UHGV virus genome: UHGV-1705688
DNA: 14,677 nucleotides
Strand: one strand, 5' to 3'
Source: a virus
Shown here: positions 1-5,711 of the stretch, piece by piece
Layout of the letters: each line of letters opens with the position of its first letter
Numbering within the stretch: the first letter of the stretch is position 1
The notes under the pieces: generated by a model
What the model saw: the letters and a program-made list of their open reading frames with translations, nothing else
Database searches by the model: none
What the model was told of the DNA's origin: nothing
Made by a program: the position numbers and the translations under genes

Positions 1-390
1 GTCAAAGAAGCCAACAACTCGGGGCATTTTCGATGCTGATGCTGCGCTCCAGATGAGGTTCCCGGCACTATCGAAAACATCCAGATAACCGCTCTGCATT
101 CCGATGTTTCTCGTCGTGCGGATCATGCTGCCTGCATTGTCTTCAAGAAGCTCAGCTCCGGGTAAACCATACTTGTTTACGTCCAGTTTAAGCCACCGCA
201 AGGTTCCGTCATTCCAGAATTGTTGCTGGGTAAATCCCAGCGTGCTTCCGTCACCAAACGGGCTGTCTACCCGGTAAAACCCTTTTTCAGTCACAGCCCC
301 CAGAGAACGCTGATCATAAAAAAGGGTGGACCTGTTTTGCGAATCGACGAGCAACTTCCCGGCACTGTTATAAACTTCGAATCCGCTCAT
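1..390 (-). CDS. Hypothetical protein, 5' portion only (130 codons in window, continues past position 1). Likely tail-tip or fibre-associated accessory protein.
   Basis: ATG at 390..388 overlaps the TGA stop of the upstream 100-aa gene (ATGA overlap). Open frame to the window edge; my translation begins MSGFEVYNSAGKLLVDSQNRSTLFYDQRSLGAV. Not in the ORF track because no stop lies in the window. Family not recognised. Confidence 0.5.
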   Translation of the reverse strand, partial: MSGFEVYNSAGKLLVDSQNRSTLFYDQRSLGAVTEKGFYRVDSPFGDGSTLGFTQQQFWNDGTLRWLKLDVNKYGLPGAELLEDNAGSMIRTTRNIGMQSGYLDVFDSAGNLIWSAASASKMPRVVGFFD

Positions 391-689
391 TGAAAGTTAT
401 AAACCTCAACTGTGAAAGTGAATGCAGGACTACCAGTGGTCGGTAAATAGAATGCAGTGAATCCGCCATTAAAAGCGCGGCAGTAATATTCATTTGCAGT
501 TACGCCAGTTGTAACAATGGATATAAATGAACCATCCTGGGTGATACCGGAAAATGAAACGTCTTTCGTCGTTTCCCCGGCAGCAAATGTTACTGTTGTG
601 CTTCCAATATAGCGGATAGCATAATCACTTAAATCAACGGCAATACGCCCTGCTCCGTCCCAGCATTGCAACCCCTGTGGCATTACCAT
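387..689 (-). CDS. Hypothetical 100-aa protein immediately downstream of J and overlapping it; function unknown.
   Basis: ORF track 387..689. ATG at 689..687 overlaps the J stop (683..685) by 7 nt; a second in-frame ATG lies at 683..681. Its stop overlaps the start of the next gene. Family not recognised. Confidence 0.55.
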   Translation of the reverse strand: MVMPQGLQCWDGAGRIAVDLSDYAIRYIGSTTVTFAAGETTKDVSFSGITQDGSFISIVTTGVTANEYYCRAFNGGFTAFYLPTTGSPAFTFTVEVYNFQ

Positions 690-3600
690 AACCCCATTCT
701 GACACGCAGCACGTTGTTGCTGTCGTAGATTTGAATGAGCGTGCTGGATATCAACATCCTGCCGCCGCCGCCCACACCGTTAATTTCAAACGTTCCCCCT
801 TTATCAAGCTTCCAGCCTACAGAGCCAGCCACATAGTTATTCGACTGGATGTAATTGCCAATTTTTGCATTGCTTATGGTCCCGTCGCCAATAACTGTAT
901 CCCTGATAATGGCCTGGCCATTCTGGATAACGAACGGCAGTGTTACAGTCCCGCCGACCATAGTAGTCACGGCGAAACGGTCTGCCAGGAAGATTACCTG
1001 TGACTGCATGCCGGAGGGTGTATTTTGAACCCCAATACCCATCCCGGCAGCGTAATACTGCCCGTTACTGGACACCCCCACCTTGATGTTATACATCGCG
1101 CTGAGGTTACCGTTTACATCTGCTATAGCCTGTGCGTTGACGTTTATCGCTGCACTGTTTTCGCCTGATTTAACAGTCAGAGTGTTGATTTTTGTTGCCG
1201 AAGCCTGAGTGAAGTCAGCCAGGGTTTCGGTGAGATCGGTTGCATTGGAAATATTGCCACCGGCAGATGCATCCAGCGTAACAAGTGCGCGGGCAACCGC
1301 CGAACTGGTATCCGCAATCGTTGTGTCAATGCGGTCGATGCTGGCGCTGTTTCCGGCATTCGTCACGGTTTGAGATCGACGCGAAGTAACCTGCGCCAGC
1401 CCATTCTGGATTATGGCGATGGCGGAGTTCTTCACTCCCCCAGCCATGCCGTCCACAGACACGCTGATGTTATCGATGCGCTGGCCCAGCGCGGTATCAG
1501 CCGTCGCCACTGTCTGCTCAAGCTCTGAGAGGGAAGACGACACTTCACCGACGGTGCTCGAAAGCTCATTAACGCTGGTCTGAACCTTTCCGACGTCCTG
1601 GGCATTTTTGGCAATATCCTTCGCCTGCTGCTCCAGTTCGTCGTTGGCCTGTTTGATGTCGTCAGCCATGCCAGCAATTTTTTCATTGCTGTCCACCGCG
1701 TTCTCGATCAGGTCTTTGAACGTATCGGAGTCTTTAATTTCCTCCAGAATCACATCTGTGATATCGGAAACATCGATGCTGGCCTGTCCTCGCACCCATT
1801 CTGTGTACCCTGATTCGTTGCCGCTGCGGTCCACCAGCTGCGCGCGGTACCAGAAAATCTGCCCAGCCTTAAGGCCCATCTGCTGATATTTGCGCTGCGG
1901 ATAAGGCACATCGGCCAGCAGCATTGCATCATCTTCGCTACCGGTCAGGCTGTACTGAATTTCCGTCTTCAGCGTGTCTTCGGTATTCGCCGGGAATCCC
2001 CAGTTCAGCTCGATACCGAATACCACGTTTTCAGAAGCGATGAAGCCAACCGGCTTCGGTGGATTGCCCACTTTACCCGTCAGCGTTTTCTCTTCTGAAT
2101 AGCCCCATCCGGATGAAATTTCTGCGGCATTGATTGCGCGCACCCGCACCAGGTAGCGCCCGGCATAAATCCCCGGGACGTCGAATGACGTGGTGGAGGT
2201 GCGCGGCACGTTAACCCAGTTCCCGTCGTTGCGGCGCCATTGCGCTTCATAGGCGATAGCGTTCTGCGCCTGGTCCCAGCTCACGCGCATTGTTTCGACG
2301 CTGATATTTTGCTGAACCACGGAAAACGAGCTGATCACGATATTCGCAGGCGGCGACTGGTTGCCCGGCGGGATCACGCTCACCGGCCGTTGGTCAATGA
2401 TGGCTCCGGTATCGATACGGGCATATTTATCCGGGTCGTGCCATGCGCCGGTAATCGAGAAAGTGCCATCATTGTTATCGGAAACGCTGACAACACGATA
2501 CTGCTGCGCGTAAAGCTCGTCAGATTCAACCACCCAAACAGCTTCGGCCTGTGGCGTCTCACTGTATGCCGTGGTGACTGTGACTGATTCCCCGTTCACG
2601 GCCTGAATGGTCCTGCTCTGCGACGCTCCGGAGGGAAGGTTGAGAATAAGTCGATCACCTGGTGCTGCATCAGCTACGCGGTCAAGTTTGATAACGCGAC
2701 CGTTAACGGCGCTGATGCGGCCGCCCATAACCTTTCCGGAAAGCAGCTCGTCTGCCACGGCGATGATGTAGCCCGGCTGCGGAATGTTTCCGTCCAGCCC
2801 GACATCAAACGAAACAACGCGATCCTTGTTATTGGTGAGAATACCCCAGCGCCCCTTTCGGTTCGCCTCTGACTGCCTGGTGCAGCCGATGGCTGTCATT
2901 TCCAGCTGATTGAAGCCGTACCGCGCCACCAGCGCCTGCTCAAATACCGGCTCCATCGCGTCGGCATAAGCGTTACCCGGGTCTGACCATGAAACCAGCG
3001 CTGTGGTGTAGCGGCTTTTCGTGGTGCTGCTCGAATAGGTGAAGCGACCGCCAACAACGTTAGCGCGCGTATAGCTGTAATCAACATCGCGCGGCATGTC
3101 AGCCAGGGCCACAATCTGATCCCCGCCCCAGTAGGTCATGCCACGGAAGATAGCGGCAAAATCACGCAGGACTGTGTAGGCGTCGTTCCGGTCCTGAATG
3201 TACACGTTGCAGGTATAGCGTGGTTCTGTACCGTTGCCCCCTTTGCCGTCTGGTACCATCTGATCACAATACTGAGCAACCTGATAAAGCGTCCATTTAT
3301 CAATATTCGCAGCGGTCAAACGGTGCCCAAGGCCGAACCGGTCAGAAACAACCAGGTCGTAAAAAATCCACGCAGGGTTATCCGTCCATGCCCACTTAAA
3401 CGCACCGGTCCATGTACCGCTATAAGTGCGGGTTTCAGGGTCGTAGGTATCTGGAACGCGGATAACGCGGCCGCGCGGTTCGCATGAAATTTGAGGAATA
3501 GAGCCGTTGAACTGGCTTGAGTCGAATTCGACGTAGAGCAGCGCGGTGTTCGGGTAGCGCAGTTTGGCGTCAATCACCTCGGTGAAGCTCTGCAGCATCA

Positions 3601-4219
3601 TCGTGTCGCCGATCTTCGCGCTGTTGGCGTCAGAGGTAATCTTACGCAGACGTATTGTCCAGGTGCTGCCAGCCTGCGGTAAATCGATACGGTGGCTGCG
3701 CTCATAACCAGACGTCGTTTTGCCGGTCACGCTGGTATTGAGTACCGTCTGCCATGTGCCGCCGTCCGTCTGTAGGTCAATCGCATAATTGACCGAGTAA
3801 CCCACCAGATCGCCGTCGTCTTCCTGTTTGAAAAGCGAGGGCCATTTAAGACGCAGGCGAACTGCTGAAAGCTGCGTATTGGTAAACGTGCGCGTCCAGG
3901 CTGTGGCACTTGATACCTCAGTTCCTACGCTGATCTCGTTTTCGGTACCGGGAATACCCTGAATATATTTTTGCGCCTGCGTTCCCGCGCGAAACTCCCA
4001 CGTTACCCCGCTGAAGTTTTGGGAGCCGTCAGCATTCTCCAGCGCTGTTCCGTCCAGGTAGATATCTTTGCCGGTTAATTGCCCGGAGAACTCGCCCTCG
4101 CCAAGGGCGATTAAAATTTTCGCCTTCGCAACTGACTGCAGATCATCGGGCTGTTCAGTTGGAGTGCGTGTCTTTGAACTACCGCCTTTGCGGCCTTTAA
4201 TCGCGGTTGCAGTTGCCAT
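683..4219 (-). CDS. J: Tail tip / host specificity protein J (central tail fibre), 1178 aa. Lambda-like N-terminal and central part; longer coiled-coil segment and divergent C-terminal receptor-binding end.
   Basis: Largest ORF in the window, in the lambda position after I. Segments such as GTEPRYTCNVYIQDRNDAYTVLRDF and SQVIFLADRFAV...PFVIQNGQ match lambda J as I recall it; the last part ending GRMLISSTLIQIYDSNNVLRVRMGLW does not. ATG at 4219..4217. Confidence 0.93.
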   Translation of the reverse strand: MATATAIKGRKGGSSKTRTPTEQPDDLQSVAKAKILIALGEGEFSGQLTGKDIYLDGTALENADGSQNFSGVTWEFRAGTQAQKYIQGIPGTENEISVGTEVSSATAWTRTFTNTQLSAVRLRLKWPSLFKQEDDGDLVGYSVNYAIDLQTDGGTWQTVLNTSVTGKTTSGYERSHRIDLPQAGSTWTIRLRKITSDANSAKIGDTMMLQSFTEVIDAKLRYPNTALLYVEFDSSQFNGSIPQISCEPRGRVIRVPDTYDPETRTYSGTWTGAFKWAWTDNPAWIFYDLVVSDRFGLGHRLTAANIDKWTLYQVAQYCDQMVPDGKGGNGTEPRYTCNVYIQDRNDAYTVLRDFAAIFRGMTYWGGDQIVALADMPRDVDYSYTRANVVGGRFTYSSSTTKSRYTTALVSWSDPGNAYADAMEPVFEQALVARYGFNQLEMTAIGCTRQSEANRKGRWGILTNNKDRVVSFDVGLDGNIPQPGYIIAVADELLSGKVMGGRISAVNGRVIKLDRVADAAPGDRLILNLPSGASQSRTIQAVNGESVTVTTAYSETPQAEAVWVVESDELYAQQYRVVSVSDNNDGTFSITGAWHDPDKYARIDTGAIIDQRPVSVIPPGNQSPPANIVISSFSVVQQNISVETMRVSWDQAQNAIAYEAQWRRNDGNWVNVPRTSTTSFDVPGIYAGRYLVRVRAINAAEISSGWGYSEEKTLTGKVGNPPKPVGFIASENVVFGIELNWGFPANTEDTLKTEIQYSLTGSEDDAMLLADVPYPQRKYQQMGLKAGQIFWYRAQLVDRSGNESGYTEWVRGQASIDVSDITDVILEEIKDSDTFKDLIENAVDSNEKIAGMADDIKQANDELEQQAKDIAKNAQDVGKVQTSVNELSSTVGEVSSSLSELEQTVATADTALGQRIDNISVSVDGMAGGVKNSAIAIIQNGLAQVTSRRSQTVTNAGNSASIDRIDTTIADTSSAVARALVTLDASAGGNISNATDLTETLADFTQASATKINTLTVKSGENSAAINVNAQAIADVNGNLSAMYNIKVGVSSNGQYYAAGMGIGVQNTPSGMQSQVIFLADRFAVTTMVGGTVTLPFVIQNGQAIIRDTVIGDGTISNAKIGNYIQSNNYVAGSVGWKLDKGGTFEINGVGGGGRMLISSTLIQIYDSNNVLRVRMGLW

Positions 4220-4230
4220 ATTGCGTCCAT

Positions 4231-4253
4231 AAAAAAAGCCACCCGGAGGTGGC
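4231..4253 (-). terminator. Intrinsic (rho-independent) terminator oriented for minus-strand transcripts, ending 11 nt upstream of the J start codon.
   Basis: Plus-strand GCCACC-CGGA-GGTGGC (4238..4253), a perfect 6-bp GC-rich stem with 4-nt loop, adjacent to A7 (4231..4237); on the minus strand this reads hairpin followed by U7. Confidence 0.6.
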
Positions 4254-4385
4254 TACTGTTTAAATATCAGGCTGTTGGTAACAGGAATCCCTGGTTAATG
4301 TGTAAGCTCAGCCCGCCAGTGGTAGGCCGCTGGCGTTAACTGACCGAGGGATGGCTGAAGTACCCGGTTAAAACGGAGTAATAAG

Positions 4386-4601
4386 ATGATCGAAGAAAAG
4401 TTCGTGGATTTTAGATTTACTCTTGACGAAAATATTCCTAGAGAAATCGCTTTAGAAATTGTGGCTCTAAGACAAGTTACAATGGTATTAACAGCAGCAT
4501 TGCCAGTAGATACAAGGCAACAAGTTATTGAAATCCTATCAAAGACAAACTCACCACAAATTCAAGACATCGTCAAAAATATGAAGCTTATTGACGCCTA
4601 A
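4386..4601 (+). CDS. Hypothetical 71-aa protein in a low-GC insert, antisense to the late operon. Uncertain whether it is expressed.
   Basis: ORF track. ATG at 4386 preceded by GGAG with ~7-nt spacer. A/T-rich third codon positions with AGA/AGG/CTA codons suggest foreign origin. No convincing sigma-70 promoter found in 4254..4385. Overlaps the minus-strand 49-aa ORF by 51 nt. Confidence 0.35.
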   Translation: MIEEKFVDFRFTLDENIPREIALEIVALRQVTMVLTAALPVDTRQQVIEILSKTNSPQIQDIVKNMKLIDA

Positions 4602-4700
4602 TGTCATTGAAGCATCGTACTCTACGGTCTCATGCGGGACCGTTTCATTAACTTCAGATGTTTCATTTTCAGTTTTTTCTACTCGTGACTCAAAAGACAT
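4551..4700 (-). CDS. Hypothetical 49-aa acidic protein in the low-GC insert, co-directional with the late operon. Alternative or partner to the 71-aa plus-strand ORF.
   Basis: My own translation (below the ORF-track length cutoff): MSFESRVEKTENETSEVNETVPHETVEYDASMTLGVNKLHIFDDVLNLW. ATG at 4700..4698 is preceded by a perfect AAGGAG (plus 4707..4712) with 6-nt spacer, 20 nt downstream of the I stop. Confidence 0.3.
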   Translation of the reverse strand: MSFESRVEKTENETSEVNETVPHETVEYDASMTLGVNKLHIFDDVLNLW

Positions 4701-4720
4701 ACACATCTCCTTAACTTAGC

Positions 4721-5369: not shown

Positions 5370-5711
5370 TTAGATACAGCGTTCTATTACTTTAATCCGG
5401 CTGTTTATTCGATAAGCAAATAGCCCACCTTGATGACGGAATTCAATCTTGGTAATTCCGCCGTCCGATATTAAATCAACCATCTCAAGTTGAGATTGTG
5501 TAAATACAGTTTTACCACCGTCATAAGGCTGAATAAAAACGCTTCCATATTTTTGGCTTTCTTCTTGCCAGCCAGAGAGTATGCATTCAGCTACTGCGTC
5601 AATTTGTTTCTTCGATTGAAAATTATTTGACGCTGGTTCCTTCCGGAGATCCTGCATACTCGAACAACCAGCCATGATTATCAAAGAAAGTGTCAATAAT
5701 GTTTTTTTCAT
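5370..5711 (-). CDS. Predicted outer-membrane lipoprotein, 113-aa precursor, inserted between K and I. Candidate moron, possibly superinfection exclusion or receptor masking.
   Basis: Inside track ORF 5370..5879, but the true start is the internal ATG at 5711..5709, giving MKKTLLTLSLIIMAGCSS: a basic N-terminus, hydrophobic core and a lipobox-like IMAGC with Ser at +2. Gene is markedly AT-rich versus neighbours and is followed by its own terminator. Lambda has no gene here. Confidence 0.75.
   Translation of the reverse strand: MKKTLLTLSLIIMAGCSSMQDLRKEPASNNFQSKKQIDAVAECILSGWQEESQKYGSVFIQPYDGGKTVFTQSQLEMVDLISDGGITKIEFRHQGGLFAYRINSRIKVIERCI

Follow-up and report, generated by a model that had tools for sequence, protein, structure and literature searches.

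Central tail fibre proteins of the J type are accompanied in several homologous systems by proteins, encoded downstream of the fibre gene, to which receptor binding has been assigned (PMC8594841; bioRxiv 10.64898/2026.04.02.716166; PMC12874032; PMC12309495). Four unrelated protein families at this locus were linked to the receptors FhuA, BtuB, LptD or YncD in a 2026 preprint, in which the C-terminal tip of GpJ was also flagged as specificity-associated and suggested to mediate compatibility with the locus-encoded receptor-binding protein (RBP) (bioRxiv 10.64898/2026.04.02.716166). Described here is gene J of the virus genome UHGV-1705688, together with two open reading frames (ORFs) that follow it, ORF A and ORF B. 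The window, i.e., the whole stretch of DNA that was analysed, is an entire metagenome contig (ENA ERZ772969 NODE_1857; 14,677 bp, approximately 10× coverage), and all positions refer to it. The J protein of this contig ends without a receptor-binding domain, and its last residues probably serve as a docking adaptor for a separately encoded receptor-binding cassette.

The region 683-1900, from which the analysis started, comprises the last 405 codons of a longer minus-strand gene, the translation of which ends with ...GRMLISSTLIQIYDSNNVLRVRMGLW. Pfam matches on the protein are FNIII-A_GpJ (aa 92-218), Phage-tail_3 (aa 344-505) and Phage_Tail_Tip PF09327 (aa 1025-1157). Sequence matches in the PDB are the F2-pyocin fibre (25vf, E 0), T1 gp33 (9l9p, E 2e-278) and lambda J (8iyk, E 1.6e-129). 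Located upstream are genes clearly homologous to H, M, L, K and I of the lambda tail. The domains and the upstream homologues therefore identify the gene as J, encoding the central tail fibre; by its sequence it belongs to a temperate siphophage of the HK97/HK022 type. The features of the gene and of the cassette are as follows.

683..4219, minus strand: gene J, central tail fibre or tip attachment protein, 1178 aa and stop codon (ORF list and translation)
1787..4219, minus strand: body of J, aa 1-811, with hub and FN3 domains, of the HK97/HK022/HK542/HK633 type (amino acid and nucleotide identity)
1472..1786, minus strand: heptad coiled-coil segment, aa 812-916 (AlphaFold2 helix, periodicity and weak Pfam coiled-coil matches)
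1118..1471, minus strand: segment rich in Ala/Ser/Thr/Asn, aa 917-1034, candidate for switching between coiled-coil and beta-prism folds (composition and AlphaFold2)
749..1147, minus strand: conserved tail-tip fibre domain PF09327, aa 1025-1157 (Pfam E 3e-48)
686..778, minus strand: end of J specific to the cassette class, aa 1148-1178 (INGVGGGGRMLISSTLIQIYDSNNVLRVRMGLW), putative adaptor for docking of the downstream proteins (sequence comparison and co-variation)
387..689, minus strand: ORF A, 100 aa, or 98 aa if translation starts at the ATG at 683, first gene of the cassette (PHROG 7961)
1..390, minus strand: 5' part of ORF B (130 codons up to the contig end; the protein has 213 aa in relatives), putative receptor-binding protein of a YncD-associated family

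J of the window is homologous to lambda J in its hub, FN3, central straight-fibre and tail-tip domains, and the gene order M-L-K-I-J is shared. BLASTP aligned aa 13-861 with lambda J at 33% identity (E 5e-126), and in a second match aa 1020-1110 with lambda aa 840-930 at 26% identity. The second match lies in the tail-tip fibre domain, which is the sole part of the C-terminal third of J that aligns with lambda J. BLASTP gave no alignment between the J of the window and lambda J aa 931-1132, which contains the LamB-binding domain, and a comparison of the last 79 aa with the whole of lambda J likewise gave nothing significant (best E 2.8). Lambda J carries a C-terminal LamB-binding domain of about 150 aa (aa ~980-1132), whereas J of the window terminates about 20 residues past PF09327 and for this reason has no receptor-binding domain of its own. 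Downstream of J, lambda encodes lom, not ORF A and ORF B. With the BLAST alignments as anchors, the last FN3 domain and the tail-tip domain are separated by a spacer of about 208 aa here (812-1019) versus about 34 aa in lambda (806-839). The extra residues, approximately 175, correspond to a 100-residue heptad coiled coil (aa 817-916), which is absent from lambda, and to the 118-residue Ala/Ser/Thr/Asn-rich segment (aa 917-1034).

A preliminary description of this DNA had reported a lambda-like body with a longer coiled-coil-like, Ala/Ser/Thr/Asn-rich stretch and a divergent receptor-binding C-terminus, implying a receptor other than LamB and module swapping at the tail tip. Homology to lambda J holds, but at 33% identity only, and the body is 98-100% identical to that of HK97/HK022-type phages. 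The stretch is indeed longer, but it consists of two distinct segments, and its length is normal for the family. The extreme C-terminus is unlike the end of lambda J, and the alignment with lambda J revealed no high-identity match to the LamB-binding domain; that domain is, however, absent rather than divergent. A receptor other than LamB remains the supported expectation, because the lambda-type binding domain is missing and because of the class of the downstream cassette. The observation was thus in part correct, including the swapping of modules, but the mechanism it placed at the J C-terminus was not.

Where the J protein stops without an extension, the small cassette genes follow directly. 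Start and stop codons overlap as TAATG (J stop and ORF A start) and as ATGA (ORF A stop and ORF B start), an arrangement by which J, ORF A and ORF B are predicted to be translationally coupled. The 98-aa form of ORF A, starting at the second ATG, is the version on record. ORF A shows 99% identity to its counterpart in Flotzy and 37% to bas10_0026 of IsaakIselin. For the 130 aa of ORF B present in the window the values are 94% (Flotzy), 44.7% (IsaakIselin) and 47% (IME347), and the full-length ORF B copies of Flotzy or of the metagenome contig L010, which stems from another sample, are 48.8% identical to the IsaakIselin protein over 212/213 aa. Among the lambdoid relatives (Flotzy, LLS, HK639, Eeyore, CharmingMan and LMessi), ORF A is 73-99%, ORF B 86-94% and the last 44 aa of J 95-100% identical; in T1-like relatives, including IsaakIselin/Bas10, IME347, NBD2 and Henu7, ORF A and ORF B are 37-47% identical. 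None of these lambdoid relatives matches the whole J gene: the J body of Flotzy is only about 65% identical at the nucleotide level; CharmingMan and LMessi share the HK97-type J body, but CharmingMan lacks 32 aa of the coil and its ORF A and ORF B are 75-88% identical. In Flotzy, CharmingMan and L010, the cassette goes on with a gene for a 120-aa lipoprotein on the opposite strand, followed by the side-fibre gene; the lipoprotein is 31% identical to bas10_0024 of IsaakIselin. Among complete E. coli genomes, 1 of 5426 covers at least 80% of window 1-1400, at 79% identity, and the cassette is commoner in prophages of Enterobacter, Klebsiella and Kluyvera.

AlphaFold2 predicts ORF A confidently as a small all-beta sandwich (pLDDT 84.8). 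PF28254 (DUF8377) is recorded on full-length ORF B copies; a local copy of Pfam yielded no matches to ORF A and the partial ORF B, searches of both against PDB sequences yielded matches at chance level only, and inspection of the translations revealed no signal sequence in either. A suggestion from the literature that ORF A might be a detached lambda-type receptor-binding domain (PMC12309495) was dropped, as Foldseek against the PDB returned no match to lambda J. PHROG 2427 (103 aa, unknown function) matches both ORF A aa 1-46 (E 3e-8) and Flotzy ORF B aa 102-161 (E 1e-3). A stretch of ORF A, G-L-Q-C-W-D-x-x-G (aa 3-16, window 640-683), is invariant in 26 ORF A homologues, and a similar start, YGIQTWDASG, is found in HK022 gp25.

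The end of J is shared with phages of known receptor. The J ends of the window (EINGVGGGGRMLISSTLIQIYDSNNVLRVRMGLW), IsaakIselin (EINGSAGNGRLTINNNIIAVYDGNGVLRVRMGLF) and IME347 (EINGKTGTGRLTINNNTVSVYDANNRLRVRMGLW) have the signature ...EING..G.GR...YD...LRVRMGL[WF] in common, whereas the FhuA-dependent phages HK022 and T1 share another J end, ENYGS..GEGAMK.TN.TISV[KR]D...LRVQ[VI]G.... A tblastn search with the last 44 residues of J ranked carriers of ORF A and ORF B first. For IsaakIselin and IME347, dependence on the outer-membrane transporter YncD was established by experiment (PMC8594841; PMC6499177). The locus of these and other Drexlerviridae of the YncD type (IsaakIselin/Bas10, IME347, NBD2 and Henu7), termed a 'bona fide RBP locus', resembles that of the window in the last 44 aa of J (59%, with the terminus RVRMGL[WF]), in ORF A (37%), in ORF B (45-49%) and in the lipoprotein (31% identity). 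The Drexlerviridae differ in being virulent and T1-like with another J body, and their cassette is convergent to J, whereas that of the window is co-directional and translationally coupled. RBP families were delimited by more than 30% identity over more than 99% coverage (bioRxiv 10.64898/2026.04.02.716166), and the full-length ORF B copies of Flotzy and L010, 94% identical to the 130 aa in the window, fall within the YncD-associated family by this measure. Since virulent phages that depend on YncD carry a cassette of the same family, the expected receptor is, on balance, this TonB-dependent transporter or an orthologue; it is proven in the Drexlerviridae of the YncD type and is here read from sequence.

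A J end of this type was also seen in the Ralstonia phage YO041_1 (L016, 3001-3446). It ends with ...TQIYDSNGTLRVRLGVW, 61% identical to the last 44 aa of the window J, and an ORF of about 100 codons without detectable similarity to ORF A or ORF B follows directly. The window-type J end may thus serve other caps outside the enteric bacteria.

The association between J end and cassette was surveyed in two sets of IMG/VR loci, isolates included, consisting of 80 loci with a window-type ORF A and 80 with an HK022-type gp25. The J end was readable in 79 loci of each set; it terminates with ...RMGLW in all of the window type and with ...LRVQ[VI]G[KR]LTGVF or a near variant in all of the HK022 type. 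The preliminary description had proposed correlating the C-terminal type with neighbouring genes as a check: J-end type and ORF A family agree in 79/79 loci of either set (158 in total), with zero crossover. ORF B of the window type was found in 79/80 versus 0/80 loci and its HK022-type counterpart in 0/80 versus 80/80, and the lipoprotein of the window type is present in 78/80 loci versus cor in 76/80 of the HK022 type, again with zero crossover. Body, coil, Ala/Ser/Thr/Asn-rich segment and tail-tip domain of J occur in 33 identity-class combinations in each group. The window-type J end, in turn, is represented by 11 variants over 79 loci, which differ by 1-4 substitutions. Breakpoints are common up to J residue ~1147; from residue 1148 to ORF A the loci showed no breakpoint. 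As the J end stays fixed with the cassette while the adjoining upstream tail-tip domain reassorts, the pattern argues for one functional unit, made up of the J end (31 residues) together with ORF A, ORF B and the lipoprotein gene.

Upstream of this unit the gene is of the HK97/HK022 type. Most of aa 41-800 of J are 98-100% identical, per 40-aa window, to the J proteins of HK97, HK022, HK633 and HK542. In megablast searches against phage genomes the match to HK97, HK022, HK633 and mEpX1 extends from the J start to approximately 1380-1400 at 93-97.6% nucleotide identity, and that to HK542 spans ~1620-4254, likewise at 93-97.6%. The spacer is of identical length in HK97, HK022 and HK633, so that the long spacer is the norm for the HK97-type J family; 32 of its residues are missing from the J proteins of HK542 and CharmingMan. 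HK97 gp24 (J) shares 95.5% nucleotide identity from the J start to ~1400 and has coil and Ala/Ser/Thr/Asn-rich segments of equal length. It differs in continuing for about 145 aa beyond GWKLNKAG (1296 aa in total), and it is followed by stf, without ORF A or ORF B. By sequence comparison, HK97 J is an alternative, fused solution on the same body.

The arrangement of the window corresponds to that of HK022 (gp24 J, gp25, gp26 and Cor) and also of HK633, HK542, HK140 and the mEp phages. The J proteins are similar in size (1178 aa in the window, 1183 aa in HK022), and in HK022, HK633 and HK542 J stops directly after the tail-tip domain and is followed by a 100-aa gene, a gene of about 212 aa, the lipoprotein gene cor and the side-fibre gene. 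Differences from HK022-type J begin at nt ~780 and concern the last ~31 residues. ORF A is marginally similar to gp25, in the N-terminal part only (E 0.004), no similarity between ORF B and gp26 was detectable, and the lipoprotein of the window-type cassette is unrelated to Cor and encoded on the opposite strand. The receptor of HK022 is FhuA (PMC6814406). Since J end, ORF A, ORF B and lipoprotein all differ, a receptor other than FhuA is predicted for the window.

The nucleotide identities divide this copy of the locus into the following segments.

4254 to ~2000, minus strand: J residues 1 to ~740, 97-100% nucleotide identity to HK542, HK633 and HK97
~2000 to 1400, minus strand: J residues ~740-940, 81-94% to HK97, HK022 and HK633
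~1400 to 840, minus strand: J residues ~940-1127, 50-93% to everything in the phage collection
211..840, minus strand: recently exchanged block of about 630 bp, at least 99% to Flotzy (30-nt windows) and to independent metagenome contigs
210 to 1, minus strand: rest of ORF B as present, about 82% to Flotzy

The exchanged block reaches from the final ~52 codons of J across the complete ORF A into ORF B, of which it includes the first ~60 codons. Its identity of at least 99% to Flotzy, next to a body of about 65% identity to the same phage, bears out the swapping of modules at the tail tip. The HK97/HK633-type DNA match stops at ~1379-1406, within the Ala/Ser/Thr/Asn-rich segment. The G+C content is 0.44-0.46 over ORF A versus 0.55-0.60 in the J body. 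Two details of the segments were recorded. Within ORF B (aa ~61-130, window 1-210) the identity to Flotzy and L010 falls from at least 99% to about 77-90%, which suggests either a further breakpoint or a fast-evolving surface of the putative receptor-binding protein. A patch in the tail-tip domain (window 871-990, J aa ~1077-1117, ...TTMVGGTVTLPFVIQNGQAIIRDTVIGDG...) shows 50-80% nucleotide identity to every phage compared; L010 covers 13 nt of it and is identical there.

The proposed mechanism combines these observations with what is known from the homologous systems. The N-terminal ~810 residues of J would form the tail-tip hub and FN3 domains, followed by a trimeric heptad coiled coil of about 100 residues. 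The end of the J trimer would be a narrow beta structure, and a cap would read the last ~31 residues of J. ORF A, the small beta-sandwich, and ORF B, of about 213 aa, would assemble on this end, and these proteins rather than J would contact the outer-membrane receptor, predicted to be YncD or an orthologue. In the F-type pyocins two small genes are likewise present downstream of the fibre gene; their products, PyoF11 and PyoF12, are found in the particle, are essential and were modelled on the fibre C-terminus as receptor-binding domains (PMC12874032). In AlphaFold-Multimer models of Dhillonvirus the equivalent proteins sit on the J end, and for Dhillonvirus and others the models favour one ORF B-like protein of about 23 kDa capping three chains, with a small immunoglobulin-like protein alongside (PMC12309495). 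Binding of the cap may trigger refolding of the coiled coil and the Ala/Ser/Thr/Asn-rich segment, thereby opening the tip (PMC12874032). In a lysogen the lipoprotein would block the same receptor and probably exclude superinfecting phages, as Cor does for FhuA (PMC3594210). The cassette, from the J end to the lipoprotein gene, would move as one unit by recombination in conserved sequence upstream of J residue ~1147.

Two other readings place specificity elsewhere. The J C-terminus could itself be the binding element for a receptor other than LamB, as the preliminary description held. Its end is class-specific and unlike both the lambda and the HK022 type, and J does carry the specificity domain in lambda, in HK97-type phages and in TolC- or LamB-specific Drexlerviridae (PMC8594841; bioRxiv 10.64898/2026.04.02.716166). 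J proteins that bind a receptor directly, however, have a C-terminal extension of 140-150 aa, whereas here only about 20 residues follow PF09327. The end is moreover near-invariant across 79 loci, as fits an interface with a partner protein, and is always accompanied by ORF A and ORF B, so that this reading is distinctly improbable. A role of ORF A and ORF B as chaperones of assembly, or as accessory proteins outside the virion, for J or the side fibres is also unlikely; the host range would then be set, for example, by the side tail fibre gene after the cassette. Neither protein has an informative family, being listed as 'unknown function' in PHROGs or as a DUF in Pfam, chaperone genes often come directly after phage fibre genes, and a structural or chaperone-like role has been raised (PMC12309495). 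Yet PyoF11 and PyoF12, the presumed homologues, have been found in the pyocin particle and set the specificity of killing (PMC12874032), and in the BASEL collection and 81 siphoviruses the cassette type predicts the experimental receptor without exception (PMC8594841; bioRxiv 10.64898/2026.04.02.716166). The cassette lipoprotein is analogous to Cor, which blocks its cognate receptor (PMC3594210); a Cor-like lipoprotein in the cassette can be understood only if the receptor is defined by the cassette, and this speaks against the chaperone role.

Because the window is a metagenome contig, the mosaic might further be a product of assembly, in which co-occurring related phages were joined at conserved stretches. 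The contig is represented in full by the window, at a coverage of 10.5, the phage collection contains no isolate with a close match to J over its entire length, and the breakpoints fall in conserved sequence. Against such a chimera, the independent contig L010 is identical over 211-883 and so runs through the junction at ~840; of the junctions at ~840 and ~1379-1406, this independent check covers the former. The isolates CharmingMan and LMessi have the same overall arrangement on an HK97-type J, and free reassortment of J segments is also found in the 160 viral loci, isolates among them. An artefact is accordingly judged very improbable.

Several points weigh against the docking of a receptor-binding cassette on the J end. 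We infer docking and receptor binding by ORF A and ORF B from homologues of 37-49% identity and from co-variation. The 160 loci are phylogenetically non-independent and comprise close relatives only (72-99% to ORF A and 79-100% to HK022 gp25), and since the J end adjoins ORF A, the perfect co-variation may partly reflect tight linkage and not functional constraint. In the window ORF B is incomplete, and the lipoprotein gene lies beyond it. The literature searched contained no published receptor for a lambdoid phage with a window-type cassette. Fold matches of ORF A are weak, the best by Foldseek being the C-terminal domain of the Sf6 tailspike (E 0.02, template modelling score 0.52); lower matches are the Pam1 tailspike's receptor-binding domain and R-pyocin fibre tips, and the authors of the F7 pyocin study likened PyoF11 and PyoF12 to the R-pyocin and Pam1 folds (PMC12874032). 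A comparison of the ORF A profile with the J C-terminal profile by hhalign gave no relation (probability 0.06%, E 0.74). For this reason the J-end part of a candidate hairpin motif, phi-x-phi-[YWF]-[DN]-x-x-[GN]-x-phi-phi-phi, noticed at the J end, the N-terminus of ORF A and two sites in ORF B, was left unsupported. The AlphaFold2 model of the C-terminal third of J is of low confidence (mean pLDDT 58.7), which also explains why a fold search with this monomer model by Foldseek returned noise only.

The two spacer segments differ in character. Residues 817-916 are acidic, are modelled by AlphaFold2 as one continuous helix and show a hydrophobic periodicity of 3.5 residues with a power of 185, versus 11 ± 11 in shuffled sequences, a value reached in 0 of 500 shuffles. 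Residues 917-1034 have an Ala/Ser/Thr/Asn content of 50.8%, compared with 29.5% in the J body, and AlphaFold2 with an alignment models them as about seven beta strands of 14 residues, not as a helix (pLDDT ~77-82 at aa 940-1000). A crude pattern test for the strands, SxSxxMxxLxS, gave no enrichment, with 10 occurrences versus 8.8 ± 2.6 in composition-matched shuffles.

In the F7 pyocin, the fibre has a 'spine' of about 100 residues, a coiled coil of 163 residues that turns into a beta-prism on target binding and a C-terminal beta structure of about 139 residues; a fold switch of this kind was predicted in many siphophage fibres (PMC12874032, a 2026 preprint). J is homologous to the F2-pyocin fibre (25vf) over its full length (J aa 6-1154 versus 4-1196, E 0), including J aa 873-1154, which align with fibre aa 917-1196 (E 2e-28). 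With the F7 fibre the correspondence is positional, based on order and segment length, as the alignment was made to F2: J 812-916 would correspond to the 'spine' (818-921), J 917 to ~1040 to the fold-switch coil of 163 residues, and the C-terminal ~138 aa to 1084-1222. The pyocin is a Pseudomonas bacteriocin, not a phage, and the switch was described for F7; by analogy in sequence and length, the coil and the Ala/Ser/Thr/Asn-rich segment of J may also switch fold. Two further readings are tentative: the spacer of about 220 residues could act as a metastable spring, and a strict docking code could reside in the last 31 residues of J. If true, such a code would let temperate lambdoid phages of the gut borrow a YncD-specific cap from virulent T1-like phages.

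Architecture and cassette are already known, near-identical cassette copies exist in sequenced phages, and nothing here is conceptually new after the literature of 2021-2026. Mildly new are a YncD-class cassette common to temperate lambdoid and virulent T1-like phages, and a boundary of the exchange unit that is sharp at J residue ~1148. An annotation habit is corrected as well: many J-like entries named 'host specificity protein' carry no receptor-binding domain, and in such cases specificity would sit in two small genes annotated as hypothetical. The receptor of this contig is thus better predicted from the YncD-class cassette than from J. For engineering and host-range prediction, the exchangeable unit would extend from about J residue 1148, after the conserved GWKLDKGGTFE, through ORF A and ORF B to the lipoprotein gene.

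The rest of the contig (4300-14,677) is mosaic, too. The head and tail-shaft genes (~5770 onward) are 93-94% identical to those of mEp237, HK225 and N15, and the I-K-L region matches HK140 at 94.5%. A terminator-like hairpin (AGCCACCTCCGGGTGGCT followed by a T run) is located at 4237-4254 on the minus strand, about 18 nt upstream of the J start, and the records of HK97 and HK633 annotate a terminator at its position. Two small ORFs are found between I and J (4386-4601, plus strand, and 4551-4706, minus strand), where HK97 has gp22/gp23, a 'moron' and a 'reverse moron'; the opposite-strand ORF encodes 71 aa and belongs to PHROG 6806, of unknown function. Between K and I an ORF of 113 aa (5370-5711, minus strand) belongs to PHROG 914, also of unknown function; at this position HK022 carries the moron gp20 and CharmingMan an annotated lipoprotein.

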